The position numbers were made by a program, and so were the translations under genes. Below the pieces are notes generated by a model. The model was not told the origin of the DNA and searched no databases. It saw nothing but the letters and a program-made list of their open reading frames with translations. Shown one piece after another: positions 3,200 to 40,964 of a stretch of DNA of 44,240 bases (position 1 is its first letter; each line of letters opens with the position of its first letter). Source of the DNA: Escherichia phage vB_EcoS_SCS92; the sequence record ON548432.1. One strand, written 5' to 3'.

Positions 3200-3281
3200 A
3201 GTCAGTATGTCCCCTGGACGTTGGAATCCGGGCCACCCGGATTTACATGTCAAGAATAAATTATTCCAACATGCAAGGCAA

Positions 3282-3545
3282 CTATTCCAGAATATTCCTC
3301 ACGTAATCCTGCAACATGAACACTTTCAGTCTCAGTTGCCGTACGCATTCGGCGTTCTGAACGTCGATAGCTAAATCCTCGTCCGCGTCACTACTTGGTG
3401 GCGCCAGCTTGCACGGCGGCTGCATCATCGTCGTATCCGGGGATGGAATTGGCGTTGGCGACGGCGCGGGACTTGAGCTGCACGCGCTCAGGGTCAAAAG
3501 TGCACACGCTGCGACCTGGCGTTTTAATGTATTTAACGACTTCAC
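3282..3545 (-). CDS. o-spanin (Rz1-like outer-membrane lipoprotein)
   Basis: 87 aa. Signal peptide with lipobox-like LTLSAC, proline-rich mature part. Overlaps the 3' part of the i-spanin gene in another frame. Confidence 0.5.
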   Translation of the reverse strand: MKSLNTLKRQVAACALLTLSACSSSPAPSPTPIPSPDTTMMQPPCKLAPPSSDADEDLAIDVQNAECVRQLRLKVFMLQDYVRNILE

Positions 3546-3777
3546 GGGTAATCACCTCTGATTTCGTCTTGCCTTCGTTGTCAGCGGCGGCGGCCTTTGA
3601 TTCGTCCTGCTGCTGCCGTTGTGTTTTCTTCGCTAACTCAGCCTGCGCTTTCTGCTGTTGCTGCGAAACGAGATTCGCCCGGCCTTCGTTCCAGCCGCTG
3701 CGATACTGGTAGATGCCGTGGGCGTAAGCCAGGATGATGAAACATGCTCCTGCTACGACAGTTGCTTTAAGATTCAT
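3391..3777 (-). CDS. i-spanin (Rz-like)
   Basis: 128 aa. N-terminal transmembrane segment (VVAGACFIILAYAHGIY) followed by a Gln/Ala/Lys-rich coiled coil. AAAGGGGAAAC precedes the ATG. Confidence 0.55.
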   Translation of the reverse strand: MNLKATVVAGACFIILAYAHGIYQYRSGWNEGRANLVSQQQQKAQAELAKKTQRQQQDESKAAAADNEGKTKSEVITREVVKYIKTPGRSVCTFDPERVQLKSRAVANANSIPGYDDDAAAVQAGATK

Positions 3778-4028
3778 GTTTCCCCTTTCTCGATAAGTAA
3801 AGCCCCGCCTTAAAGCGGGGCGCTAGTCCTTATCATTTAAACATAGAAACGGCGTAATCTCAGTAAACCCGTTACTTTTTACACAAGCAATAGAGTATGG
3901 CCCTTCCGAACGCGTCAGCGTAACTACACTCAGGACTTACGTCCCGCTCCGTTACCTGCCCGCGCCGCGGTCGCTTGTTCATACTTCACAAGCTCAGGTG
4001 GAGCTTAGCACATTTTTAGTGAAAAGTC

Positions 4029-4044
4029 AACTATTCGAATAGTT
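4029..4044. repeat. perfect 16-bp palindrome AACTATTCGAATAGTT
   Basis: Read directly. Sits in a 375-bp ORF-free region and overlaps a TTGACT hexamer on the minus strand. Confidence 0.6.
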
Positions 4045-4096
4045 TATTCCAACATTTACAATTGAGTGGAATAACTGGAATACGTAAATAAATAGT

Positions 4097-4125
4097 TTGC
4101 ACACACCAATATAATAGGGTACTAT
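4097..4125 (+). promoter_or_regulatory. sigma70-like promoter (TTGCAC-N17-TACTAT class) with embedded AATAG-N4-CTATT palindrome
   Basis: TTGCAC at 4097-4102, 17-bp spacer, TACTAT at 4120-4125, about 28 bp upstream of a gene with an AGGAGGTG Shine-Dalgarno. Near-identical copies at 38905, 15547(-) and 16739(-). Confidence 0.5.
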
Positions 4126-4152
4126 TCATTTAACTTAAACAGGAGGTGAAAA

Positions 4153-4356
4153 ATGTATGCAATTTGCGAAGTAGTTCAAGAGTTCGATGAAGAGTTCGAC
4201 GGTGACTTGTGCCGGGTTAAAAAGGTTCTGCAGGTTTTCCCTGACGCAATGTCTGCTTACAAGGCATTAGATATATTTGAACCTGGAAGATACGGGGATT
4301 ATGACACTGTTCTGAGGGTTGTCCATGAGCAGGATTTAAACACAAGATTCCGTTGA
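4153..4356 (+). CDS. hypothetical acidic 67-aa protein (opposite-strand moron in the head gene block)
   Basis: Strong AGGAGGTG Shine-Dalgarno 7 bp before the ATG, own promoter and a downstream hairpin. No recognisable domain. Confidence 0.55.
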   Translation: MYAICEVVQEFDEEFDGDLCRVKKVLQVFPDAMSAYKALDIFEPGRYGDYDTVLRVVHEQDLNTRFR

Positions 4357-4380
4357 AAAATAAAGCCCCATTTCGGGGCC
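4353..4380. terminator. terminator hairpin between convergent genes (stronger on minus strand)
   Basis: GCCCC-atttc-GGGGC stem; the minus-strand RNA is followed by TTTATTTTTC. Lies between the 4356 stop (+) and the 4386 stop (-). Confidence 0.4.
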
Positions 4381-4385
4381 TCTTA

Positions 4386-4847
4386 TCATTCGGGCTTAAT
4401 AACCTTCGCCGCTTTACTGAAGGCCTCTACTCCATCGGCATCGGTAACTTTAACGAAGTATTCGCCGACCGCATTAACCGTCAGAGACAGAGCCTCTGCA
4501 GGGGCGTTTACCACTTCCTTACCGTCTTTGTACCAGGTCAGAGAATACGGCGCTTTGCCTGCCTTAACCTCGACAGTGATGGTTGCGCTGCCGCCCGCCA
4601 GTTCAGCGTCCTGCGGTTGCGCAGAGAAATACACGTCGCCAGCGTCCGCCAGATACGGAATTTCATAAAGCATACCGGCGGCGGGCAACGCAATACCGGT
4701 TTTATCTGCAAACGGCATATCATCTACCGGTGTACCGAGTACACTTTCGTCCTCAATAAATACCACGTTCTCGCCAGAGCCAGACACGCGGGCGTACTGG
4801 ACTACGCGACGAGACGGTACGTCAGTTACTTTGAAAAAGCCCATCAT
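4386..4847 (-). CDS. Ig-like domain protein (second copy), putative virion accessory protein
   Basis: 153 aa. C-terminal Ig-like motif APYSLTWYKDGKEV...GEYFVKVTDADG. Confidence 0.5.
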   Translation of the reverse strand: MMGFFKVTDVPSRRVVQYARVSGSGENVVFIEDESVLGTPVDDMPFADKTGIALPAAGMLYEIPYLADAGDVYFSAQPQDAELAGGSATITVEVKAGKAPYSLTWYKDGKEVVNAPAEALSLTVNAVGEYFVKVTDADGVEAFSKAAKVIKPE

Positions 4848-5890
4848 TATTCCCCTTTCAGATAATCAGCAACACGTTTATCGAGTTCCGCCATCTGCTT
4901 AAGCGTGAGCGGATTCCCGAAACCATCTACAGATATTACGCGAAACTCTTCCGGCGATATACCGCTGTTACGGAAAATCTTACCTCGCACCGGGCCGAGC
5001 GCCTGGTCCTGAAACCATGCTGGTTGTTGTTTCAGGAACTCGTAATATGTTGTGTCCGCGCTTACCTGAGTGCCGCCGTCAGCGCCCTTAGCCGCCCGTT
5101 TTGCGCCTTTATCGAGGAAGTCGAACTCTGAACTGATTACCGGAGCCGTGCACGACCGACAATTCGGATGGGCTGGGGGTGTCGGCCCTTTACCGATTTC
5201 CCACGTCATTCCGTCTCTGGCCCTGCAAATAGCGCTGGTACGGCTATCCAGCGTAGACACCCATTCATATTTCTCGATGATGTCGTCGTTCTGGCGGTAT
5301 GTCTCGTTGCGGGCTTCGTTGGATACGTGAGACAGCGCGGTGCGTATTACTGTAGCTGCGTTACGTTCTGAGATGTCAGCCAGCCCGCCCGCGCCTACGA
5401 CATTCTTAACAATCTGCCGTGTTGTCTGGCCTTGTACAAAGCCCATCTTAACGCCGGTTACAAGACGTGCTACTTCCGTTTCACCCCAGCCGTCCATCAG
5501 CTTAGTGAAATCAACGGGCTTGTCACTCAACGATAATGGCTGAAACTCGGCAGCAGCCCACACCTGTTCAGCGGTAGGTGTAACAAATTCCGCGTCTACG
5601 TTGGCGGTCAGTGTCTTTACGTTCCACTCAGCCTCGTACGCCGCCAGTTCCTTAAGGTCGTCTGTCAGCTTTGTCTGCCAGTCGCCCGTAATCCCTGTCA
5701 GTGCTTCTTCAAGGTCCCGTAACAGTTTATTCAGCCGCGCAGTGCTTCGCCCGTCGTCGCCGAATAACAGCACCTGCCGTTTGATTTCATCCCGCATCTC
5801 CTGAATGAACGGTGTGAGGTCTTTCACCTCACCGGATGCGGTGCGTTGCAGCCATATCTGATGGCTGATGAGGGATGTAAGTAAGCTCAT
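4847..5890 (-). CDS. head morphogenesis protein (Mu F / SPP1 gp7-like)
   Basis: 347 aa, directly downstream of the portal gene. Phage Mu F-like signature region (STLDSRTSAICRARDG). Confidence 0.7.
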   Translation of the reverse strand: MSLLTSLISHQIWLQRTASGEVKDLTPFIQEMRDEIKRQVLLFGDDGRSTARLNKLLRDLEEALTGITGDWQTKLTDDLKELAAYEAEWNVKTLTANVDAEFVTPTAEQVWAAAEFQPLSLSDKPVDFTKLMDGWGETEVARLVTGVKMGFVQGQTTRQIVKNVVGAGGLADISERNAATVIRTALSHVSNEARNETYRQNDDIIEKYEWVSTLDSRTSAICRARDGMTWEIGKGPTPPAHPNCRSCTAPVISSEFDFLDKGAKRAAKGADGGTQVSADTTYYEFLKQQPAWFQDQALGPVRGKIFRNSGISPEEFRVISVDGFGNPLTLKQMAELDKRVADYLKGE

Positions 5891-5924
5891 AGATCAACCC
5901 TGTGGCGCTAAAGTTAATAGCATA

Positions 5925-5949
5925 CTATAAGAAAGCCCCTTTCGGGGCT
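5925..5949 (-). terminator. hairpin (attenuator-like) between portal and head morphogenesis genes
   Basis: AGCCCC-tttc-GGGGCT stem; the minus-strand RNA continues with TTTCTTAT. Confidence 0.3.
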
Positions 5950-11392: not shown

Positions 11393-11421
11393 AATATAAT
11401 AGGGTCGTAGGTAATAGTCAA
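11393..11421 (-). promoter_or_regulatory. sigma70-like promoter (TTGACT-N17-TATATT) on the minus strand
   Basis: Minus-strand reading gives TTGACT, a 17-bp spacer and TATATT, just downstream of the terminator at 11443-11474. Confidence 0.4.
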
Positions 11422-11442
11422 CTAGTCATTGCAGAAAATAGA

Positions 11443-13390: not shown

Positions 13391-13601
13391 CTACTCTATC
13401 GTATGCATATTCGTCCGGTATTACGCCGTAACCCAGGTCGTTGTCCAGCTTAACTAACATATCGAGTATATCGTTGAGTTCGGCTTCGAGTTTCGCGTAG
13501 TCTTCGTAACTTACATAACGCCCTTCATGAGAGTCCGGAACAGGCGTTATATCTACCACGCCACTCGCGCAGTCTTCTGTTAAATCGTAGCGTATAACCA
13601 T
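13350..13601 (-). CDS. paralogue C of a triplicated small-protein family
   Basis: Starts MVIRYDL with a GGAGG Shine-Dalgarno and a TGATG overlap with paralogue B. The longer track ORF (to 13646) is an upstream extension inside the 94-bp repeat. Confidence 0.45.
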   Translation of the reverse strand: MVIRYDLTEDCASGVVDITPVPDSHEGRYVSYEDYAKLEAELNDILDMLVKLDNDLGYGVIPDEYAYDRVGEILEKYRNEPCN

Positions 13602-13690
13602 CACTCCACCCCCTCCACATGTGTAACTGACCCGCAGTTCGCGCACTCGACGTAATCAGGGTACTGGTCTTTGTATTTCTGTAGCTCGGC
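13597..13690. repeat. 94-bp direct repeat, copy 1 (about 91% identical to 13866-13959)
   Basis: Read directly. Spans the junction of paralogues C and B. Confidence 0.7.
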
Positions 13691-13870
13691 GTTTACTTCT
13701 GCCAGTCTCGACACAAGCCCTTCTATTTCCTTGTCGGCGTCGGCTAGACGTTCCTGGTAATAGTCGTCCAGTTCCTTATAGCTGTCGTACTCTACATAAT
13801 CGCCGTATGCGTACTCAGCCATCTCAGGCTCTGGCAGGCCCCACGCTTTTACCTCATATCTCTGTACCAT
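13601..13870 (-). CDS. paralogue B of a triplicated small-protein family
   Basis: Starts MVQRYEV with a TAATG overlap with paralogue A. C-terminus AELQKYKDQYPDYVECANCGSVTHVEGVE is shared with paralogue A. Confidence 0.45.
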   Translation of the reverse strand: MVQRYEVKAWGLPEPEMAEYAYGDYVEYDSYKELDDYYQERLADADKEIEGLVSRLAEVNAELQKYKDQYPDYVECANCGSVTHVEGVE

Positions 13871-13959
13871 TACTCCACCCCTCCCACATGTGTAACTGAC
13901 CCACAGTTCGCGCACTCGACGTAATCCGGGAACTGGTCCTTGTATTTCTGTAACTCGGC
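13866..13959. repeat. 94-bp direct repeat, copy 2
   Basis: Read directly. Spans the junction of paralogues B and A. Confidence 0.7.
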
Positions 13960-14073
13960 TTCAACTTCCAACAGCTTTAGGTCAAGATTCTGGTAGTCCT
14001 CAAACTTAACCCACTTCCCGTGGCGGTCAATGAAATGGTTGTCGGACCCATACTTAGAATATCTCTGTACCAT
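13870..14073 (-). CDS. paralogue A of a triplicated small-protein family
   Basis: Starts MVQRYSKYG at ATG 14073 with an AGGAG Shine-Dalgarno just after the upstream stop. C-terminus ELQKYKDQFPDYVECANCGSVTHVGGVE. Confidence 0.45.
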   Translation of the reverse strand: MVQRYSKYGSDNHFIDRHGKWVKFEDYQNLDLKLLEVEAELQKYKDQFPDYVECANCGSVTHVGGVE

Positions 14074-15515: not shown

Positions 15516-15546
15516 CCTCTGTCTCTCCTCTCGTTTGTGTAAATGA

Positions 15547-15575
15547 ATAGTAGCCTATTCTATATTAGTGTGCAA
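15547..15575 (-). promoter_or_regulatory. sigma70-like promoter (TTGCAC-N17-TACTAT class) with AATAG-N4-CTATT palindrome
   Basis: Minus-strand reading gives CTTGCAC, a 17-bp spacer and TACTAT, about 30 bp upstream of the 15515 ATG. Confidence 0.5.
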
Positions 15576-16704: not shown

Positions 16705-16738
16705 AACCACCACTCCTCTGTCTCGTTCCGATAAGTGA

Positions 16739-16767
16739 ATAGTATCCTATTATATTGGGGTGTGCAA
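16739..16767 (-). promoter_or_regulatory. sigma70-like promoter (TTGCAC-N17-TACTAT class) with AATAG-N4-CTATT palindrome
   Basis: Minus-strand reading CTTGCACaccccaatataataggaTACTAT, almost identical to the promoters at 4097 and 38905. Confidence 0.5.
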
Positions 16768-17617: not shown

Positions 17618-19900
17618 GTGAACGCCGAGGCCAAATTACTTGCTGAAGGAATATACAACATGTCCGATGTAATTTTATCCTACTCGTGGTCACGCCGCAA
17701 CGCGCGGGCGGGGAAAAAGGATATAAATGTCAGAACCGCACACACGGCAACACTGGACGACCTGAAAGAGTTAATCCAGCCGCTCGATGCCGTTCGTGAC
17801 GGGATTAACCCCAAGACTGCGCCCGGTTATATCACGGCCGCGTGCGATTCTACACACAGCACCGTAAAAGACCCGGAAACCGGTGGCTTTAAACAAGCGC
17901 GTAAAGGCTTCTTCTATCGCTGTGACGCGTCTGTGAGCAAATCGTCGCTGGCGTATCTGGACTTCGACAGTGCAACACCGGAAGAGTACCAGGAAGCGGT
18001 GCGCCTGGTTAATCGCAGCCGCCGGGCGATGTGTCTCTACACCACGGCATCACATACCGATGAGGTCGCCCGCTTTCGCGTCGTCATGCCGCTGGCCCGC
18101 CCAGTTGAGGGTGGTGATATCATCCGTGTTCGTCATGGGTTGCTGGAGCACTTCTTCAAAGGCATGGGTGCGGACCGCAGCGGGTTCACTCTGTCGCAGC
18201 CGATGTACCTGCCGCCGGTCGGCGCTACCGTTATCTGGTCGCGCCGCAACGACCTGATCGACCCGAACGAGTTACTGGAAGGCATCCCAGCCGTTGACGT
18301 TAGCAGCGCATCGGATTACCAGATACCGGAAGAACTGCGCACCGCGTTTACAGACGCGTTTGAAGCACTGGCGTTTGAGTACGGCGGCGTCATGACGCCG
18401 CGCGGCCTTAAGATGCCAGCCACACCGGAACATGCCGAAAACTACAGCGACCCGACACCGCGCCCGGACGACTTCCTGCTGTGCTTCCCGCGCGAGGGGT
18501 ATGAAGCGCCAAACGTAACCATGATTCACGACACAGACATTACGGCGACAGAAGGCCTGTCACCGAAAGAGGTGTGGAAGTACGCGTGCGATGCGACCGG
18601 GCTGCCGTTCAGTGAAGTCGCAGAGGCCATCGGTTGGGGGGCGCGTGAATCTGTCTCATGCAGCCTCGACGACCTGGAAGACGACGAGGACTCAGAGGAG
18701 GACGAGTTACCGGAGCCGGTAAAGGCTGATTTCGTCGTTGAGGGGTACATGCCGTCGGATTGTATCTGGGGTATCGTCGGAGAATCGGGCACGTACAAAT
18801 CATTCTATACGCTGGGGATGATGTACCTGAGCGCCGCCGGATACCGGTTTGCAGGGGCTGACACCCAGCGTTGTCACCATTTCTATATCGACGGCGAGGG
18901 TGGGGCAGCCACACGTACACGTATTGATGCGCTCGCGGCTAAATACGGCGAGGAAGGTAAAGATTATGTACATGTCATCGATATGGGCGAAGTCGGCAAA
19001 CTTAAAAGCCTGATTAAGTTAATGCGCGAAACTGCTGGCGACGAGCCAATTGGCATGGTTGCGTTCGACACCCTTAACCAGACCCTGGCACTGACGATTG
19101 ATAAGTTCGACGAGAACAGTTCATCAACAGCAATCGGCATGGGTAAAGTTATCGCCATTCTGAAAGAAGTACGCGATGCAACTAAAGCCGCTGTCGGTGT
19201 CGTTCACCATACTCCGAAGGGCGGAAAGAAAGCCCGCGGCAGTGGGGCGCTGTATGCGGGTGTTGATGTGGAACTGACAATCGAACGTGCAACCGACCGT
19301 CAGATAAACGTATATCACTCGAAATTCAAGCACGGGCCTCAGCAGAAGACGGTTGGCATGGTGCTGGAGTCGGTACAGTTCCGTGAAGCGCCGCCGCCTA
19401 AAGAATACCGAGCGGTTGAGTTCCTGGGTAGCACAGAGGAATACGGCACAATCGTAAACCTGGACCTGCCTGAACCACACAAGGCGCTTGTGTTGATGCC
19501 GTGGGGTTTCGAGCCGTTCAAAACTGACGAGGAGAAAGAGCGGGAAGAAGGGTTGACGAAAGAAGGTAAGAAAAAAGTAAAGGAAGAAGTTAAACGCGGC
19601 AGGGATGAAGTAAGGAAGGAGTCAATACTTTCGGCACTGGAAGACCTGCAACAGTCAGATGACACAGGTCGCGGTTTTACTCAGCAGCAGATAGTGGCTC
19701 GTTCCGGTGACTTCTCTGTGACTAACACCCATCTTGATAAAATGTTGAAAGATGGAGAACTAATGCTTGGTTGCGATGCTAACGGCGAAGTAGTACCGAG
19801 AACATATCGTATACCCGAAAGAATAGGGGATAGATTAAGGCCGAAGACACTATACGAACCAAATGAGATGCTGGTGGTGACAGAGGAGGATTTGGAATAG
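17618..19900 (+). CDS. primase-helicase (RecA-fold ATPase with N-terminal primase-like domain)
   Basis: Walker A GIVGESGTYKS and Walker B-like VAFDTLNQ in the C-terminal half, large N-terminal domain, C-terminal TEEDLE. Likely ATG at 17660; the track starts at a GTG. Confidence 0.6.
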   Translation: MNAEAKLLAEGIYNMSDVILSYSWSRRNARAGKKDINVRTAHTATLDDLKELIQPLDAVRDGINPKTAPGYITAACDSTHSTVKDPETGGFKQARKGFFYRCDASVSKSSLAYLDFDSATPEEYQEAVRLVNRSRRAMCLYTTASHTDEVARFRVVMPLARPVEGGDIIRVRHGLLEHFFKGMGADRSGFTLSQPMYLPPVGATVIWSRRNDLIDPNELLEGIPAVDVSSASDYQIPEELRTAFTDAFEALAFEYGGVMTPRGLKMPATPEHAENYSDPTPRPDDFLLCFPREGYEAPNVTMIHDTDITATEGLSPKEVWKYACDATGLPFSEVAEAIGWGARESVSCSLDDLEDDEDSEEDELPEPVKADFVVEGYMPSDCIWGIVGESGTYKSFYTLGMMYLSAAGYRFAGADTQRCHHFYIDGEGGAATRTRIDALAAKYGEEGKDYVHVIDMGEVGKLKSLIKLMRETAGDEPIGMVAFDTLNQTLALTIDKFDENSSSTAIGMGKVIAILKEVRDATKAAVGVVHHTPKGGKKARGSGALYAGVDVELTIERATDRQINVYHSKFKHGPQQKTVGMVLESVQFREAPPPKEYRAVEFLGSTEEYGTIVNLDLPEPHKALVLMPWGFEPFKTDEEKEREEGLTKEGKKKVKEEVKRGRDEVRKESILSALEDLQQSDDTGRGFTQQQIVARSGDFSVTNTHLDKMLKDGELMLGCDANGEVVPRTYRIPERIGDRLRPKTLYEPNEMLVVTEEDLE

Positions 19901-19926
19901 GTAAAAAGAAAGGGGCTTTAAGCCCC
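19901..19926 (-). terminator. terminator hairpin between the convergent primase and HTH genes
   Basis: GGGGCT-tta-AGCCCC stem; the minus-strand RNA is followed by TTCTTTTTAC. The stem overlaps the HTH gene stop. Confidence 0.45.
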
Positions 19927-20133
19927 TTCACCTAACGCCAACCACTTGGCGTCTACTTCAAGCACTTCCGCCAGTTTAAACAGCGTCGCCGGGCGGACAT
20001 CCTGAGTTACCCCAAGTGCAAGCTGGTTAATCGCGCCCTGGGAGACACCGGCCAGGACAGCCAGACGGCGCTGGGAGATGCCGAGTTCTTTACGGCGTTG
20101 TTCTACACGAATGCCTAGTTCAGATGGTTGCAT
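19918..20133 (-). CDS. XRE-family (Cro/CI-type) HTH transcriptional regulator
   Basis: 71 aa. QRRKELGISQRRLAVLAGVSQGAINQLALG is a classic HTH_XRE motif. AAGGAG Shine-Dalgarno. Lone minus-strand gene with a divergent promoter region. Confidence 0.8.
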   Translation of the reverse strand: MQPSELGIRVEQRRKELGISQRRLAVLAGVSQGAINQLALGVTQDVRPATLFKLAEVLEVDAKWLALGEGA

Positions 20134-20164
20134 GTCAGCTACTCCTTAGTTAGTTGATATGTGA

Positions 20165-20193
20165 ATAGTACCATATTAATTATTTTAGAAAAG
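20165..20193 (-). promoter_or_regulatory. extended -10 promoter (TGnTACTAT) for the HTH regulator gene
   Basis: Minus-strand reading TGGTACTAT about 25 bp upstream of the AAGGAG Shine-Dalgarno; weak -35. Confidence 0.4.
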
Positions 20194-20197
20194 CCCA

Positions 20198-20226
20198 TTG
20201 ACATGTGAATAGTTCGCTATTATAGT
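20198..20226 (+). promoter_or_regulatory. near-consensus sigma70 promoter TTGACA-N17-TATAGT with AATAG-N4-CTATT palindrome in the spacer
   Basis: TTGACA at 20198-20203, TATAGT at 20221-20226, 32 bp upstream of the ATG at 20258. A weaker tandem copy (TTGATA ... TAATTA) lies at 20154-20182. Confidence 0.6.
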
Positions 20227-20257
20227 TAACCCATACCAAACGAGAGGTGAGAAACAA

Positions 20258-22312: not shown

Positions 22313-22512
22313 TTCAAGTAAATGAAATGCCCACAGATAAAGATTTTGTGATGATATGGCGCTGGGGCGGTTATATCCATTCGGAATCGTTTACGTTCCT
22401 GAACGGCACGATGGTGCGATACAACCATGTGGAGGATGAATTCGAACCCGTTGATATGAATGATTTCGAGAACATAGTCCGTATTGCGAAATTTTATTTG
22501 ACACCTGAATAG
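22309..22512 (+). CDS. hypothetical protein
   Basis: ATG at 22309 with an AGGAGG Shine-Dalgarno, overlapping the nuclease stop. Confidence 0.4.
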   Translation: MIQVNEMPTDKDFVMIWRWGGYIHSESFTFLNGTMVRYNHVEDEFEPVDMNDFENIVRIAKFYLTPE

Positions 22513-22526
22513 TTAGCTATTATAGT
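22498..22526 (+). promoter_or_regulatory. sigma70 promoter TTGACA-N17-TATAGT with AATAG-N4-CTATT palindrome
   Basis: TTGACAcctgaatagttagctatTATAGT, overlapping the stop of the upstream gene, 60 bp before the ATG at 22586. Confidence 0.55.
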
Positions 22527-22585
22527 TCTAATCACTGGCCGGGCAGCTTCCCGGAGTAAACGAAACTTAAAAGCGAGAAATTAAG

Positions 22586-23271: not shown

Positions 23272-25452
23272 ATGAGATACTTATACCTGGACTTTGAAAC
23301 ATTCTCCGAGGCCGATTTAAAGAAAGTCGGCTCCTACGCTTACGCTGAACACCCAACTACCGAAGTGCTTATCTGTACCTATGCTTTTGACGACGAGCCT
23401 GTGCAGGTATGGGATTGCACCGACGGCAGCGACATGCCAGGTGATTTGCACCGCGCACTGCGCCGTCTGGTGAAGCCGAACAGCCGCATCAAGATGGTAT
23501 GGCACAACGGTGGGCTTTTCGATAGGCTCATCATGAAGCATTGCTGGGGCTTTGATATTCCGGTAAGCAACACCATTGATACGATGATTTGGGCGTTTCG
23601 TCACGCGCTGCCGGGTTCTCTTGATGCGCTGTGCGAAGTGCTGGGCGTGTCTGCAGACAACGCGAAAGATAAACGCGGCAAGGCTCTGATTAAGCGTTTC
23701 TCTAAACCGACGCCGAAGAACTACAAAATCCGCCGCTACACCGCAGAAACTCACCCTGACGAGTGGGCGATGTTCATCAGGTACGCCGTGAGCGACATCA
23801 CTGCGATGCGTGAAGTCTTCCATAAGCTGCCGCGTTGGGGTAACTCCGAGTTCGAAGACCGTGTACTGGAACTTGACCAGTTAATCAACGACCGTGGGTT
23901 TAAGGTTGATGTGACGCTGGCGGAAGCCGCGATTGAAGCCGTGGAAAAACACAAGGCCAAGCTACAGGAAGAAGCACAGCGCAAATACGGCGGCTCGCTT
24001 ACTGGTAAAGACTTCCTGCCGATTCTGCGTGAACTGGCCCCCGCACACCGCATACACAACGCACAGAAGTCGACGCTGAATGACCTGCTGGCCGATGATG
24101 ATTTACCTGACGACGCCCGCACGATTATCGAAATGCGCCTCGGGGCCGCGTCAACAGCGTCCACGAAATATAACCCGCTGCTGTTAGGCCGCTCGTCGGA
24201 CGACCGACGCCGCGGTTGTATCCAGTACGGTGGGGCAAAGCGTACGTTACGGTTCGCGGGTAAAGGCTTCCAGCCACAGAACCTGGCGCGCGGGTACTAT
24301 CACGATGATGAACTGGATAAAGGTATTTCAGCGTTACTTAAAGGCCGCGCGCATCGCCGTTTCGATGTAGCCAAGCTAACGGCATCGACGGTGCGTAGCT
24401 GCATCATACCGGAAGCCGGGCGTAAGTTTGTCGTAGCTGATTACTCTAACGTTGAAGGTCGCGGGTTGGCATGGCTGGCGGGAGAAGAAACCGCTCTCGA
24501 TACCTTCCGTGCGGGATTGGATATTTACTGTGTAACCGCGGGTAAGATGTTCGGCATGGACCCTGATTACATTCTGAAAGCACGTAGTGACCTACGCCAG
24601 ATAGGTAAAGCATGTGAATTGGGCCTTGGCTATGCTGGTGGTGTCGGTGCTTTCGTTCAGTTTGCTAAGAACCTCGGACTTAACCTGGTTGATATGGCAA
24701 AAACAATGGACGGGACATTCCCCGACCATATATGGGCCGCTACTGCACGCGGCTATGAATGGGCACGTATTCAGGAAGCCAAGCGACCTCCGCGGCCAGG
24801 TGAAAAGGATGACCGACCATCGTATATTCTTGATAAGAAAGTGTGGCGTACCTGTGACGCTATCAAGCGCATGTGGCGCGAGTCCCACCCGGAAACAGTA
24901 GCGTTCTGGCGGGATATTGAAGACGCCGCTATGGCAGCTATCCGCAATCCAGGTAAAGAGTTCACTGCGGGACCGCGGGGTGTTAAGTTTTCGCGTAACG
25001 TAGAAACGGACAACAACGGCAACAAAGTCGCTGGTTGGTGGTTGCGCATGACGTTGCCGTCGGGTCGCGTTATGTCTTATCCGGGGGTCGGGTTGAGCGT
25101 GTCGAAAGAAACAGATGGAGACGGGAAGGTGTCTACTAACGTGCGCATTAAGTACCAGGGCGAAAATCAGCTAACCCGTCAGTGGGGGTTCCAGTACACC
25201 TACTCGGGTAAACTGGTGGAAAACTGCACTCAGGCATTGTGCCGTGATTTGCTGGCTAATGCCCTGCTGAACGTAGAAGCAAACGGCTACCCGATTGTAC
25301 TTCACGTACACGATGAGATTATCTGCGAGACACCAGATTCACCGGAATACAATGTAGCAGAGCTTGAGCGGTTGATGTGCGAATTGCCGGAATGGGCGGA
25401 GGGGTTCCCTCTTGTAGCTGAAGGTGCGGAGATGAAGCGATATGCCAAGTAA
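23272..25452 (+). CDS. DNA polymerase, family A (with 3'-5' exonuclease domain)
   Basis: Exo I YLDFETFS, pol motif A VVADYSNVEGR, motif B RQIGKACELGLGYAGG, motif C VLHVHDEIICE. Confidence 0.9.
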   Translation: MRYLYLDFETFSEADLKKVGSYAYAEHPTTEVLICTYAFDDEPVQVWDCTDGSDMPGDLHRALRRLVKPNSRIKMVWHNGGLFDRLIMKHCWGFDIPVSNTIDTMIWAFRHALPGSLDALCEVLGVSADNAKDKRGKALIKRFSKPTPKNYKIRRYTAETHPDEWAMFIRYAVSDITAMREVFHKLPRWGNSEFEDRVLELDQLINDRGFKVDVTLAEAAIEAVEKHKAKLQEEAQRKYGGSLTGKDFLPILRELAPAHRIHNAQKSTLNDLLADDDLPDDARTIIEMRLGAASTASTKYNPLLLGRSSDDRRRGCIQYGGAKRTLRFAGKGFQPQNLARGYYHDDELDKGISALLKGRAHRRFDVAKLTASTVRSCIIPEAGRKFVVADYSNVEGRGLAWLAGEETALDTFRAGLDIYCVTAGKMFGMDPDYILKARSDLRQIGKACELGLGYAGGVGAFVQFAKNLGLNLVDMAKTMDGTFPDHIWAATARGYEWARIQEAKRPPRPGEKDDRPSYILDKKVWRTCDAIKRMWRESHPETVAFWRDIEDAAMAAIRNPGKEFTAGPRGVKFSRNVETDNNGNKVAGWWLRMTLPSGRVMSYPGVGLSVSKETDGDGKVSTNVRIKYQGENQLTRQWGFQYTYSGKLVENCTQALCRDLLANALLNVEANGYPIVLHVHDEIICETPDSPEYNVAELERLMCELPEWAEGFPLVAEGAEMKRYAK

Positions 25453-25573
25453 ACTGATTATTGCGGTACTGGCGGGATTCGCCGCCGGTGTCTACTGTCA
25501 CGAGGGTCAATACGGCATGATGGTTGCCGTATTAGGTATGTTAGTAACAATTTATCTGTGGGTGCTGGAATGA
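25442..25573 (+). CDS. hypothetical 43-aa membrane protein
   Basis: ORF below the track threshold. Begins inside the polymerase stop region; two hydrophobic segments (LIIAVLAGFAAGVY, MMVAVLGMLVTIYLWVL). Confidence 0.3.
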   Translation: MPSKLIIAVLAGFAAGVYCHEGQYGMMVAVLGMLVTIYLWVLE

Positions 25574-25659
25574 AAATTTACTGGTTCTACGAAGAAGACC
25601 GCCGGATCTGTCCGCGCTGTGGTATTGCGCATACGAAACGTGAGGGGTGCGTATTATGA
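25570..25659 (+). CDS. hypothetical 29-aa CxxC peptide
   Basis: MKIYWFYEEDRRICPRCGIAHTKREGCVL; ATGA overlaps with both neighbours. Confidence 0.25.
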   Translation: MKIYWFYEEDRRICPRCGIAHTKREGCVL

Positions 25660-25808
25660 CAATGTTTGTATTTAGGACCATAGTAACCATGCTCGCACTG
25701 TTACTCGGTGCGGGAATAGCTGCTATGTTCTGTTACGGCCTGTTCTTTCAGTTTGCCGGTGTTGCCATTCTAGGCTGGGTTTTCCTTACCTGGATGCTGC
25801 GGTCATGA
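25656..25808 (+). CDS. hypothetical 50-aa membrane protein
   Basis: Two hydrophobic segments; ATGA overlap with the VRR-NUC gene start. Confidence 0.3.
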   Translation: MTMFVFRTIVTMLALLLGAGIAAMFCYGLFFQFAGVAILGWVFLTWMLRS

Positions 25809-26089
25809 CTAAAGAGGGACGCATACAGAAATACGCAAAAGAGCGATTCGAGGCCCTTGGTGGCCTCGTTCGTAAACTTTCCTACGAAGGACGTTCCGGC
25901 GCCCCTGACCTGCTGGTAATTCTCCCCGGCGGCATCGTCTGGTTCGTCGAGATAAAGAAAGACGAAAGCACGAAGCCGGATCCCCACCAGTTACGGGAGC
26001 ACGAGCGGATGCGTAAGCGTGGTGCTAATGTTTTTGTCGTTGGTTCGTTTAAACAGGTTGACGACCTAATAGCGAACTATTATAGTTAG
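25805..26089 (+). CDS. VRR-NUC domain nuclease
   Basis: 94 aa. GAPDLLVILPGGIVWFVEIKKDES fits the PD-(D/E)xK pattern of VRR-NUC. Confidence 0.7.
   Translation: MTKEGRIQKYAKERFEALGGLVRKLSYEGRSGAPDLLVILPGGIVWFVEIKKDESTKPDPHQLREHERMRKRGANVFVVGSFKQVDDLIANYYS
26058..26086 (+). promoter_or_regulatory. sigma70 promoter TTGACG-N17-TATAGT with AATAG-N4-CTATT palindrome
   Basis: Overlaps the 3' end of the VRR-NUC gene, 34 bp before the ATG at 26120. Confidence 0.5.
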
Positions 26090-26119
26090 TCCTACACCAA
26101 CAATATAAGGAATTGAGAA

Positions 26120-26311
26120 ATGAAACACGAATATGACCGCAAACCAGCACGTGACATCGTACCTGGCGACATGATTTTCAACGTTAAGACCCGTCGGCCT
26201 GTTGCCGTTGATACGGTGTACGTCGAGTCGAACGGTAAACTGGTTATCGAAGATGTAACCGGTAACGTTACGGCGTTCGGGCGTAAAGAGTTAGTTCTGG
26301 TGGCAAAATGA
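26120..26311 (+). CDS. hypothetical protein
   Basis: 63-aa track ORF with an AAGGAA Shine-Dalgarno; ATGA overlap with the methyltransferase start. Confidence 0.4.
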   Translation: MKHEYDRKPARDIVPGDMIFNVKTRRPVAVDTVYVESNGKLVIEDVTGNVTAFGRKELVLVAK

Positions 26312-27102
26312 ACTATTACAACGAATGGGATAAAGGCGCAGCCGCGTGGCTGCGTGAATTAATAAAACAGGGTCACATACCTTTTGGAGTTGTAGATGAA
26401 AGAAGCATTACTGAAGTTAAGCCAGAAGACCTCGACGGATTCACCCAGTGTCATTTTTTCGCTGGTATCGGCGGCTGGCCTCTCGCGCTCAGACTTGCGG
26501 GAGTTCCGGAAGATGCGCCTCTCTGGACGGGAAGCCCGCCTTGCCAACCGTTTAGCGCAGCGGGAAAGCAACTCGGACAGTTCGACCCGAGACACCTCGC
26601 ACCTGTGTTCCTCGACCTCATCAGCGAGTGCCGCCCTCCAGTCCTCTTTGGGGAGCAGGTTGCGCCAGCAATTGCAAAATCGTGGATGTGCGATTTACAA
26701 ACTCACCTGGAAGGAGAAAACTACGCCGTCGGGTTTGCCGTACTCCCAGCTTGTAGCGTCGGCGCACCGCACAAACGCGACCGACTTTTCTTCGGCGCGC
26801 AGCAACTGGCCAACACCGTGTGCGAACAACTCGGCGGGAGCAGGCCATCAGGGCAGGAACGGGGGCCACAATCTGCAAACAGAGGCATCTCTGACACAGC
26901 CAATCCGCATCACGGCTTCTGGTCAGAGGCAGACTGGCTCGGATGCCGGGATGGAAAATTCAGGCCAGTTGAACCCGGCACATTCCCGCTGGCTGATGGG
27001 ATACCCGCCAGAGTGGGACGATTGCGCGGTTACGGCAATGCCATCGTCCCGCAAGTAGCTGCTGAATTTATAAAGGCATTCATGGGGGCGGTAAATGAGT
27101 AA
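26308..27102 (+). CDS. DNA (cytosine-5)-methyltransferase
   Basis: Motif I FFAGIGG, motif IV PPCQPFS (catalytic Cys), ENV-like GEQV, RDR motif VIII, motif X GNAIVPQVA. Short (264 aa), so a compact target-recognition region. Confidence 0.8.
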   Translation: MNYYNEWDKGAAAWLRELIKQGHIPFGVVDERSITEVKPEDLDGFTQCHFFAGIGGWPLALRLAGVPEDAPLWTGSPPCQPFSAAGKQLGQFDPRHLAPVFLDLISECRPPVLFGEQVAPAIAKSWMCDLQTHLEGENYAVGFAVLPACSVGAPHKRDRLFFGAQQLANTVCEQLGGSRPSGQERGPQSANRGISDTANPHHGFWSEADWLGCRDGKFRPVEPGTFPLADGIPARVGRLRGYGNAIVPQVAAEFIKAFMGAVNE

Positions 27103-28519
27103 GTTTCAAAGGCGTGAGTACCAAAAGCTCATGACTTCGTTCATGCTGCGGCACCATCGCTGCAACATATGGGCAAGCATGGGCGCTGGGAAGACTGGCA
27201 GCGTACTGTGGGCATTAAACCGACTGTTCCGAAACGGCCAACTTAATGATGACGACCGCGTGTTAATCCTCGCCCCGCTGCGGGTTGCGTCTGGTACGTG
27301 GCCTGCAGAGCAAGAGAAATGGCAATTCCCATGTCTGCGTGTTGTAGATGCGACTGGTTCAGAGAAGCGCCGCATCGCGGCGCTGGAGTCAGATGCTAAC
27401 GTGGTTTGCACGAACTATGAGGTTATCGAGTGGCTGATTGACTACTACGGCAAAGACGACTGGCCTTTTACGGTTATCGTTGCAGATGAAAGCACGAAGC
27501 TTAAATCATTCCGCAGCCGTTCAGGTGGTAGCAAGCGTGCAAAGGCGCTTAGTAAAGTGGCTTTCGGAAGGGTTAAGCGTTTTATTAACCTGACTGGTAC
27601 ACCGTCACCAAACGGCCTCAAGGATTTGTGGGGCCAGAACTGGTTTATCGACGCTGGCGAGCGCCTGGGTTCGTCGTATACAGCATTCACCGACCGCTGG
27701 TTTAATTCGGTACAGAAAGGAAAATCTGCGATGGCACGTGAATATCACGCCCGCCCTGGTGCAGATAACGAGATTCACCAGAAGATGAAGGACATCAGTC
27801 TGACGATTGACGCCGCCGAGTGGTTCGGTTGTGAAGCGCCTGTTATCGTGCCGGTTGAAATCGACCTGCCGAAGAAAGCACGTCAGGCGTACATCGATAT
27901 GGAGGAGAAGTTATTCGCGGAACTGGAAAGCGGAGAAGTTGAAGCGGCTAACGCTGCGGCGAAGACGTCGAAGTGCCTACAGATTGCCTCCGGTGCCGTG
28001 TATGTATCGGGGCCAGATGGCGAATCAACCAAAGAATGGGAGAAAGTGCACGACACGAAACTTGATGCGCTGGAGTCAATTGTGGAGGAGTTGCAGGGCG
28101 CGCCGTTGCTGGTCGCCTATCAGTTCAAGCACGAACTTGAGCGCATCCTTAAGCGATTCCCACAGGCGCAGGCGTTTTCCAAAGGCGCGAAGGGTAATAA
28201 GCAGATGGAAGCGTGGAACCGCGGCGAAATAGAAATCTTATGCGTACACCCTGCGTCAGCCGGGCATGGTTTGAATTTACAGGACGGCGGCCATCATCTG
28301 GCGTTTATTTCACAAGGCTGGAATCTTGAGCACTATTTGCAGGTTGTCGAGCGCATCGGCCCTGTTCGCCAGAAACAAGCTGGGCACGAGCGCCCGGTGT
28401 TCCTTTATCACATAGTCGCTAAAGACACGCTGGACGAGGTTGTTGCCGCGCGTACCGACGAGAAGAAATCGGTACAGGAAGAGTTGCTTAACTACATGAA
28501 GAGACGAGGTAAGAAATGA
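27095..28519 (+). CDS. SF2 DNA helicase (SNF2/DEAD-like)
   Basis: Walker A SMGAGKTGS, motif II VIVADESTKLK, and C-terminal helicase motifs. Confidence 0.8.
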   Translation: MSKFQRREYQKLMTSFMLRHHRCNIWASMGAGKTGSVLWALNRLFRNGQLNDDDRVLILAPLRVASGTWPAEQEKWQFPCLRVVDATGSEKRRIAALESDANVVCTNYEVIEWLIDYYGKDDWPFTVIVADESTKLKSFRSRSGGSKRAKALSKVAFGRVKRFINLTGTPSPNGLKDLWGQNWFIDAGERLGSSYTAFTDRWFNSVQKGKSAMAREYHARPGADNEIHQKMKDISLTIDAAEWFGCEAPVIVPVEIDLPKKARQAYIDMEEKLFAELESGEVEAANAAAKTSKCLQIASGAVYVSGPDGESTKEWEKVHDTKLDALESIVEELQGAPLLVAYQFKHELERILKRFPQAQAFSKGAKGNKQMEAWNRGEIEILCVHPASAGHGLNLQDGGHHLAFISQGWNLEHYLQVVERIGPVRQKQAGHERPVFLYHIVAKDTLDEVVAARTDEKKSVQEELLNYMKRRGKK

Positions 28520-28653
28520 ACATCATAGCCCCGATTCCAGCATTGCAAAAACGTATCAAGGAACTCGAAGAGGAGGTTCTACGCCTACGGCAACAGAGAG
28601 ATGCCGCTAATGCGCAACTGGCGTTTGTGCTGGAGAAGTTATCAGAAGAGTAG
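28516..28653 (+). CDS. hypothetical 45-aa coiled-coil peptide
   Basis: ORF below the track threshold; ATGA overlap with the helicase stop. Confidence 0.3.
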   Translation: MNIIAPIPALQKRIKELEEEVLRLRQQRDAANAQLAFVLEKLSEE

Positions 28654-28655
28654 AG

Positions 28656-28681
28656 AAAAGGCCCCGTTTGGGGCCTTAGTT
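28656..28681. terminator. bidirectional rho-independent terminator between the replication and tail modules
   Basis: GGCCCC-gttt-GGGGCC stem flanked by an A-run upstream and TTAGTTTTAAT downstream, so it is T-rich on both strands. Confidence 0.6.
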
Positions 28682-30862: not shown

Positions 30863-30874
30863 ATAGAGTCCTCT

Positions 30875-38904: not shown

Positions 38905-38933
38905 TTGCACACCCCAATATAATAGGGTACTAT
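38905..38933 (+). promoter_or_regulatory. sigma70-like promoter (TTGCAC-N17-TACTAT class) with AATAG-N4-CTATT palindrome, driving the opposite-strand island
   Basis: CTTGCACaccccaatataatagggTACTAT, 28 bp upstream of the ATG at 38962. Confidence 0.55.
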
Positions 38934-38961
38934 TCACCAGTAACTTACTGAGGGTATAATT

Positions 38962-40951: not shown

Positions 40952-40964
40952 GGGAGATTGATTT

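Follow-up and report, generated by a model that had tools for sequence, protein, structure and literature searches.

The stretch of DNA analysed here, 44,240 nt of Escherichia phage vB_EcoS_SCS92 (ON548432.1; hereafter the window), raises the question of what its positions 3778-4152 are for, 375 bp that lie between the i-spanin gene Rz and a gene of 67 amino acids (aa). The original prediction called this region free of open reading frames (ORFs), which is true in substance, no ORF of at least 60 aa being found. It listed a perfect palindrome, a GC-rich hairpin and possible promoters on both strands, all of them present where it had placed them. We assign a probability of roughly 0.6 to the region controlling a separate transcription unit, made up of Rz/Rz1, scaffold, capsid and downstream genes. 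Its likely function would be to provide this unit with a separately regulated promoter and with a stabilising, attenuating leader. The idea of a regulatory hub or promoter, among those originally put forward, thus finds support in a promoter footprint that spans two genera, an upstream terminator and a conserved array of sites resembling protein-binding sites. The elements of the promoter and of the leader are the following.

4002-4030, minus strand: sigma-70-type extended -10 promoter, with the -35 hexamer TTGACT at 4030-4025, a 17-nt spacer, TG at 4010-4009 and the -10 hexamer TAAGCT at 4007-4002.
3778-3995, minus strand: non-coding 5' leader of the Rz/Rz1-scaffold-capsid unit, extending from the inferred start as far as the base that precedes the Rz ATG (3777).
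3973-3993, minus strand: P1, a hairpin with stem GCUUGU/ACAAGC and a 9-nt loop, which begins 1-2 nt after the inferred start.
3906-3970, minus strand: P2, an irregular hairpin of 65 nt and 23 bp, with four helical segments and internal loops.
3899-3910, minus strand: nearly invariant block UUCGGAAGGGCC, at the 3' foot of P2.
3778-3850, minus strand: P4, an interrupted hairpin of 73 nt and 27 bp in four coaxial segments.
3821-3802, minus strand: GC-rich apex hairpin of P4, GCCCCGCU-UUAA-GGCGGGGC, followed by the tail UUUACUUAUC at 3801-3792.

By its sequence the phage is a Kagunavirus of the subfamily Guernseyvirinae, with an established gene order, and the 375-bp region has matches in 180 records of Escherichia and Salmonella phages of this genus, with an identity of at least 95% in 172. 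DNA upstream of Rz was gathered from 48 viral contigs, 31 metagenome contigs, one contig of a genome collection and the phages in GenBank, and promoter conservation was counted over the 89 homologous loci with enough sequence. The scan of the genome collection by Rz alignment gave just three short contaminant-like contigs, and that of the metagenomes gave additional Kagunavirus sequences and no new lineage. Escherichia phage NTEC3 is collinear with the window, with equal length and coordinates; 1,461 substitutions but no indels separate the two. These substitutions are distributed as a mosaic, with many 1-kb bins devoid of any, and within the studied region the bases that differ from NTEC3 are polymorphisms found in other Kagunaviruses too.

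The claim of a minus-strand promoter was borne out by the comparison of Kagunavirus with the genus Jerseyvirus. The pattern TG.TA.GCT is kept in 89 of the 89 loci, as TTGACT-17-TGnTAAGCT in Kagunavirus and as TAGACT-17-TGtTACGCT in Jerseyvirus, and the -35 hexamers match the consensus at 5/6 and 4/6 positions, respectively. The spacing of 17 nt is constant in both genera, whose spacer sequences are unrelated to each other, and a genuine promoter would be expected to leave just such a footprint, with conserved hexamers held at a fixed distance while the spacer between them diverges. The hexamer has the TG two bases upstream and retains the A at position 2 and the T at position 6, as an extended -10 element should, and in the record of phage PVP-SE2 a predicted phiSITE promoter is annotated at the homologous place. 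Judging from the position of the -10 element, transcription would start at G3995 or A3994. Promoters of the sigma-54, sigma-E and T4-late types were dropped, matching elements not being seen by eye. Elsewhere in the window there is a promoter TTGACT-17-TATATT after the endolysin gene (11393-11426, minus strand, within ACTAGTTGACTATT), which has TAGTTGACT in common with the promoter at 4002-4030; its homologous site in Jerseyvirus Ent3 lies at 40956.

The leader that would follow this start is 218 nt long in Kagunavirus and about 191 nt in Jerseyvirus. Its mean identity within Kagunavirus is 96.4%, compared with 91.2% for the coding sequence of Rz and 93.5% for that of the scaffold gene, and its predicted fold is more stable than that of shuffled sequences (z = -2.3). 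ARAGORN found no tRNA in the leader, and a search of Rfam 15 over 3500-4500 at a permissive threshold gave best scores of 13-19 bits (E > 1), far under the gathering scores, with none over P2.

A plain MAFFT alignment of the two genera yielded with RNAalifold a partial fold, because P2c and the lower part of P4 were misaligned, and for this reason it was replaced by alignments to two covariance models. These were built from Kagunavirus sequences alone and then used to align Jerseyvirus: R1 covers P2 and the conserved tail (3884-3974), and R2 the 3' domain (3778-3862). In the genomes of both Kagunavirus and Jerseyvirus each model has a single hit per genome, R1 with scores of 89-120 bits in the former and 40-48 bits (E 1e-8 to 1e-10) in the latter. 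As a negative set, we used 100 loci collected from viral contigs with the gapped DNA pattern ACCGCG...TYCGGAAGG, almost all of them chance matches: one Kagunavirus contig scored, and none of the 99 unrelated viral loci did better than E=0.1.

Outside these two genera, Dhillonvirus shares a distant Rz without the leader. Salmonella phage TS6, from a third lineage of Guernseyvirinae, has a longer pre-Rz leader with a very stable predicted fold (z = -5.4), whose apex CAGGGAC-GGGCC-GUAA-GGCCU-UGA-GUCCCUG resembles P2, with an R1 score that is not significant. The intergenic region in question (886-1500, 615 nt) contains TTGACA-N8-TATAAT and an annotated 39-aa ORF. The P2 motif was also recognised by R1 (35-48 bits) at 877-966 of a 2.3-kb record of Salmonella phage MB78 from the 1990s (X87092), in which a scaffold-like downstream gene is annotated with ribosomal frameshifting (p26/p28). 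By this motif MB78 is a phage of Jerseyvirus type, on which there may be earlier experimental work.

Covariation across relatives, one of the checks proposed with the original prediction, supports both long hairpins. In the R1 alignment 95.9% of the cells of P2 are paired, against 25-40% when the partners are slid. Ten of its 23 pairs show changes on both sides (0-3 when slid), and its covariation score is 0.297 (at most 0.05 when slid). In the R2 alignment P4 is paired in 97.9% of cells, against 49-58% when slid, with both-side changes in eight pairs compared with one. For both hairpins compensatory changes therefore exceed the slid controls, as is characteristic of a conserved structured RNA. 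Such changes occur also within Kagunavirus, among them GGGAC/GUCCU to GGUGC/GCACU or to CGGAC/GUCCG, and GGUAAC/GUUAC to GGGAAC/GUUCC. Moreover, several G-U pairs are invariant, which on the opposite strand would be C-A, indicating that the minus-strand RNA is the selected molecule.

As to the individual hairpins, P1 varies within Kagunavirus in its loop or by extension of its stem (L034, L200), and Jerseyvirus has at its place a different hairpin, ACGCU-UUC-AGCGU. P2 ends in the apex GGGAC-GUAA-GUCCU, and is followed by a linker in which nearly invariant blocks, UUCGGAAGGGCC, CUAUUGCUU and AGAUUACGCCGU (AGAUU(A)CGCCGU), alternate with variable stretches and which carries deletions in L034, L200 and Jerseyvirus. 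CsrA or boxA-like sites were considered in the conserved single-stranded blocks, and the resemblance was too weak. At the base of P4, GUUUCU (3850-3845) pairs with GGAAAC (3783-3778), together with UUU/GAA, over the ribosome-binding region of Rz (AAAGGGGA, 3788-3781), so that this helix takes in half of the GGGG Shine-Dalgarno core as well as the 6 nt preceding the start codon of Rz. The lower helices pair the U-rich stretch that would be a terminator tail with an A-rich stretch upstream. The helices that use bases 3' of this tail show the compensatory changes U-A to A-U, G-C to U-A and A-U to C-G, and since they covary, the fold is selected in an RNA that reads through into Rz. With its 27 bp in four coaxial segments, P4 would also suit RNase III, whose sites have about two turns of duplex, often with an internal loop; the fit is a structural one.

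The apex of P4 is the hairpin GCCCCGC-N6-GCGGGGC described at 3802-3821 by the original prediction, and it was the first-listed minus-strand terminator-like site in our scan. Its GC-rich stem has 8 bp, seven of them G-C pairs, and a loop of 4 nt. The stem is maintained by compensatory variants, GCCCUGC/GCAGGGC in three Kagunavirus sequences (L012, L014, L201) and GCCCGGC/GCCGGGC in Jerseyvirus. It resembles an intrinsic terminator, probably a leaky one.

Upstream of the promoter there are two further features, which overlap, and a related set of sites lies before the scaffold gene.

4029-4044, both strands: perfect 16-bp palindrome AACTATTCGAATAGTT, made of CTATTC and GAATAG, with its centre at -41.5 from the inferred start.
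4031-4082, plus-strand reading: GAATA/TATTC array, with CTATTC at 4031, GAATAG at 4037, TATTCC at 4045 and GGAATA at 4068 and 4077.
3254-3300, minus strand: second array and putative scaffold-gene promoter, GGAATA-TTCT-GGAATAG-TTGCCT-17-TATTCT, between Rz1 and the scaffold gene.

Palindromes of this length are expected at 0.84 per genome in first-order Markov simulations, at least one occurring in 55% of the simulated genomes, and the window holds a second perfect one at 18385-18400, inside the helicase-primase gene. Therefore, the palindrome alone is no evidence beyond chance, and what meaning it has would come from its location and its conservation. Kagunavirus keeps it almost without variation, and in Jerseyvirus the sequence is no longer a palindrome (TATTCAAAAAGTAGACT; the stretch reads TATTCAAAAAG). 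It was originally described as the arms of the promoter palindrome in inverted order. The half-site letters are indeed the same, but rather than a lone inverted operator it is best read as the junction of two abutting GAATA-type sites that belong to the array, the palindrome itself being incidental.

Read on the minus strand, the array consists of TATTCC-AGT-TATTCC, 17 nt, and GGAATA-N3-TATTC, to which Kagunavirus adds GAATAG right before TTGACT; the direct repeat and GGAATA-N3-TATTC are kept in both genera. The 44-kb genome has just two clusters of at least four GAATA/TATTC sites in 70 nt, one at 4031-4082 and the other at 3254-3300, and Jerseyvirus Ent3 has such clusters at the same two places and nowhere else. 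The second array is conserved in Kagunavirus and Jerseyvirus (window positions 3200-3300). Its promoter carries GGAATAATTTATTC in the spacer and -10, and after it, ahead of the scaffold gene, there is a 5' hairpin, AUCCGGGUGGCCCGGAU, with compensatory changes between the two genera. Both clusters immediately precede head-gene starts, on the sense strand, and because they are unique in the genome, it is reasonable to suppose that a dedicated DNA-binding regulator acts on the head-gene promoters and that the two arrays belong to one regulatory set.

The sequence elements and their conservation, the RNA fold with its strand and the lack of coding are shown; from them we infer the start site, timing, termination efficiency, translational effect and binding protein of this control region in the following way. 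Leftward transcription of the upstream head genes ends at the terminator after the Hoc-like gene (4382-4362), and the host RNA polymerase would restart at the extended -10 promoter, near 3995. A protein of the phage or of the host would probably act on this promoter by way of the GAATA/TATTC array, which lies between about -36 and -87. In the transcript, P1 would cap the 5' end and probably shield it from decay, P2 would form a long conserved hairpin, and a share of the RNA would stop at the tip of P4, acting as a weak terminator. In the RNA that reads through, the complete P4 may fold and occlude the ribosome-binding site of Rz, keeping spanin translation low; alternatively, translation of Rz may depend on P4 melting or on a cut by RNase III. 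The downstream head genes would use their own ribosome-binding sites and probably the second, related promoter at about 3250-3290. Bases 4084-4152 are a separate matter, the promoter and 5' untranslated region (UTR) of the inserted 67-aa gene. The leader is best described as an uncatalogued, covariation-supported RNA, and the region as a control region still, not a new kind of system.

Several points weigh against this explanation. The -10 hexamer TAAGCT agrees with the consensus at only 3/6 positions, for which reason a generic promoter scan of the window did not list the promoter. The U-rich tail of the P4 apex is weak in Kagunavirus (UUUACUUAU, 6/9 U) and poor in Jerseyvirus (UUAGCGUAU, 4/9), so that the hairpin may not terminate. 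Start site and termination are deduced, the literature on Guernseyvirinae yielding no data on transcript ends, and the RNA-seq study of Kagunavirus K1B4 reports gene-level classes (PMC12645636). The alignments were fitted to the models and represent few independent lineages, and most of the compensatory changes split the two genera, which implies fewer independent events than the cell counts suggest. P2 and the invariant UUCGGAAGGGCC are left without an explanation in the proposed mechanism. Finally, no binder has been assigned to the array, the DNA-binding candidates being the 71-aa HTH_3, the 56-aa HTH_17 and the NinH-like proteins.

Taken together, the promoter, the structured RNA and the terminator-like hairpin are laid out as in a small RNA gene, a reading that the original prediction had also considered. 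Here the product would be a trans-acting, stand-alone RNA of about 175-200 nt with its end at the 3821-3802 hairpin, and Rz and the head genes would be expressed mainly by read-through or from other promoters, the possible second promoter before the scaffold gene being available for the latter. The distance from the start to the U-rich tail, about 195-204 nt, agrees with this, and a conserved, structured non-coding RNA is indeed found. However, three covarying helices of P4 use bases 3' of the would-be end (3801-3778), as befits a read-through mRNA leader. In addition, the U-tract is poor in Jerseyvirus, and the hairpin lies 24 nt before the start of Rz, a gene that has no other promoter. No target complementarity was found, nor any homologue of the promoter and leader in 5,426 E. 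coli genomes searched by blastn. We consider a trans-acting RNA unlikely.

Slightly lower still we would place a processive antitermination leader, acting either through nascent P2, in the manner of HK022 put, or through a protein loaded at the promoter, as for lambda Q or AlpA. The geometry matches that of lambda pR'-6S-tR', with the same TTGACT and 17-nt spacing and, here, about 195-204 nt from the start to the tail. Terminator-like sites on the minus strand also come after the genes for portal, Hoc-like protein and capsid. Downstream of the -10 there is one more hexamer of its kind, an ambiguous candidate for a pause element in the initially transcribed region: TGAGCT in Kagunavirus and TACGCT in Jerseyvirus, in both cases as the 5' strand of P1; the latter exactly repeats the Jerseyvirus -10, but the Kagunavirus copy lacks the critical A at position 2. 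P2 is moreover a single long hairpin, unlike the two stem-loops of put, and has no match in Rfam. Binding elements of Q and AlpA sit in the promoter spacer, between -35 and -10 (PMC9371919), whereas here the spacer is not conserved between the genera and the conserved sites are upstream of the -35. No Q-like or AlpA-like protein was found in the annotations of the relatives or by Pfam scans of 18 small or unassigned proteins, a subset of the ORFs, which gave HTH_3, HTH_17 and NinH only. Two proteins were set aside as antiterminators: the 145-aa protein beside the holin genes, an HslV-family peptidase or ATP-dependent protease according to two database sources, and a 166-aa early protein, which is acidic and of low complexity. 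A new phage antitermination device, with RNA polymerase bound by P2 and UUCGGAAGGGCC or with an unrecognised protein loaded through the GGAATA array, is a long shot. If it did exist, it would take polymerase past the P4 tip and several terminator-like hairpins in the head-tail unit of roughly 20 kb, and would amount to Q-like or put-like logic built from unrelated parts in the strictly lytic Guernseyvirinae.

That the palindrome and the GGAATA repeats mark a site acting as DNA, such as the origin or packaging site suggested originally, or a recombination site, is very improbable. Short direct and inverted repeats in an AT-rich stretch could be read in this way, but both clusters stand directly before promoter-like hexamers and head-gene starts, far from the replication genes (17-28 kb) and the terminase genes (7.4-9.2 kb), and the adjoining conserved sequence is constrained as RNA on one strand, as its G-U pairs show.

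A small protein gene is scarcely credible: the one frame in question, annotated in several GenBank records, is intact in 36 of 59 distinct sequences, but it is broken or deleted in other lineages, has no family match, and shares its bases with compensatory changes of the RNA type.

3872-3982, minus strand: 36-aa ORF, a hypothetical protein in some records (fEg-Eco06, Bas70-76, fKuEco01).

The intact copies, with ATG and 36 codons, show many differences when tabulated at the amino-acid level, and one more sequence has a GTG start. The frame is broken or the start absent in 21 of the 59, all Jerseyvirus types included: indels of 1 nt leave 9-17 aa in L009, L018, L027 and L028, L023 has a frameshift, L034 and L200 have no start codon, and a deletion has removed the start region from all 13 Jerseyvirus-type sequences. 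No match to Pfam or PHROG was obtained and no credible ribosome-binding site precedes the ORF. It was rejected as a gene, its frame and start not being conserved in relatives. A conserved protein-coding gene, which the original prediction named as the finding that would overturn it, was thus looked for, and none is conserved. A leader peptide was dropped as well, the tiny ORFs differing between genera.

The right-hand part of the region belongs with the 67-aa gene, and its neighbourhood is as follows.

4084-4152, plus strand: promoter-like element and 5' UTR, with the 32-nt element at 4097-4128, the operator AATAGGGTACTATT at 4113-4126 and an AGGAGG ribosome-binding site.
4153-4356, plus strand: 67-aa gene, the right neighbour of the region, served by this AGGAGG site.
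3391-3777, minus strand: Rz, the i-spanin gene, the left neighbour.

Farther right, on the minus strand, come the Hoc-like, head-morphogenesis, portal and terminase genes, and farther left the Rz1, scaffold, major capsid and connector genes. The 32-nt element TTGCACACnCCAATATAATAGGnTACTATTCA occurs in four copies (4097-4128, 38905-38936 and, on the minus strand, about 16735-16766 and about 15543-15574), the first two with 97% identity, and each copy is 25-35 nt ahead of a ribosome-binding site and start codon. The plus-strand promoter proposed at 4097 holds as far as a repeated promoter-like element is concerned, but its TTGCAC and TATAAT hexamers are just 7 nt apart, which is not the canonical sigma-70 layout.

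Some Kagunaviruses match the 375-bp query at positions 1-305 only, and fKuEco01, about ten metagenomic contigs of Kagunavirus and every Jerseyvirus lack the insert. In these insert-less genomes the terminator of the Hoc-like gene directly adjoins TATTCCAGTTATTCC, which indicates that positions from about 4084 to 4361 (about 278 bp) are a variable cassette. The 67-aa protein has no match in Pfam and a weak one in PHROG, to a family whose function is not known, and its gene has a bidirectional terminator (4362-4382) in common with the Hoc-like gene. In Salmonella phage celemicas a tRNA-Ser is annotated across the end of the Hoc-like gene and this terminator (1468-1545). Since ARAGORN detects no tRNA in the whole window, this annotation may be mistaken.

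The operator at 4113-4126 is one of a family. Twelve sites match AATAG-N4-CTATT with at most one mismatch, where 0.94 are expected and none of 100 shuffles reaches this count, and they occur in promoter-like contexts. In phage fBC-Eco01 a motif from a PHIRE search, with the consensus tgAATAGTa-ccTATTat-T, was reported as phage promoters (PMC9825357). Its half-site letters GAATAG/CTATTC recur in the palindrome as well as at 4113-4126, with the difference that in the palindrome the half-sites face outward and have no spacer. Given that the element lies inside or beside sigma-70-like hexamers and that no phage RNA polymerase is found in the annotations examined, it looks like the operator of a phage regulator. 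There are near-consensus early-type promoters TTGACA-N4-AATAGnnnnCTATT-ATAGT, with the operator in the spacer, at 20198-20227, 22498-22527, 26058-26087 and 20154-20183, two of which flank the divergent gene of the 71-aa HTH_3 regulator (19918-20133), and this protein is the obvious candidate for binding the early-promoter operator. At 5916-5949, before the head-morphogenesis gene, an operator-like sequence, TATAGTATGCTATT, comes at once behind the terminator-like hairpin that follows the portal gene, and another minus-strand terminator-like site is placed after the capsid gene (1430-1409). Elsewhere, a direct repeat of 103 nt with 89% identity (13597-13699 and 13866-13968, copies 269 nt apart) lies in a small-gene region, and the records of the relatives fEg-Eco06 (3570-5375) and Ent3 (25318-31475) annotate inteins in the minor head protein, the helicase and the DNA polymerase.

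Kagunavirus and Jerseyvirus are among the most frequently isolated candidates for phage therapy and food safety, with hundreds of genomes deposited, and no account of the timing of head-gene and spanin expression in Guernseyvirinae was found in the literature. The analysis provides a defined promoter, a genome-unique pair of site arrays that points to a dedicated regulator, a covariation-supported RNA motif that is not in Rfam and is suitable for curation as a family, and a correction for the 36-aa "hypothetical protein", a mis-annotation that recurs. If read-through or spanin translation is indeed controlled by the leader, this RNA would offer a handle on lysis timing and burst size.

Among known systems, the late region of lambda is similar in several respects. 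The promoter pR' also has a -35 TTGACT and a 17-nt spacer, and its 194-nt RNA to the terminator tR' compares with about 195-204 nt to the tail here. Both RNAs are untranslated and lie just ahead of lysis and late structural genes, and the hairpin and weak U-rich tail here would correspond to the end of the lambda RNA. In contrast to lambda, no homologue of Q was found, the spacer is unconserved and the candidate protein sites are upstream of the -35. Furthermore, the body of the leader is a conserved structured RNA whose hairpin adjoins and pairs with the ribosome-binding site of the next gene, and we know of no comparable structural constraint on the body of the lambda 6S RNA. HK022 put, with two adjacent stem-loops that together measure about 70 nt, is likewise a structured RNA made right after a phage promoter and ahead of terminators, whereas here a small 5' hairpin is followed by one hairpin of 65 nt, with no link in sequence or through Rfam. 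The interrupted 27-bp duplex of P4, which includes a ribosome-binding site, recalls the RNase III-processed or occluded leaders of phages (the lambda N leader, the T7 inter-cistronic sites), and P1, within 1-2 nt of the 5' end, recalls the stabiliser hairpin at the 5' end of ompA mRNA; such elements control translation and decay. The likeness is a structural one, as no sequence relationship was found and P4 has in addition a terminator-like tip. Set against these systems, what appears to be new is an undescribed leader RNA supported by covariation, together with a genome-unique pair of regulatory arrays, in a much-sequenced subfamily of phages.

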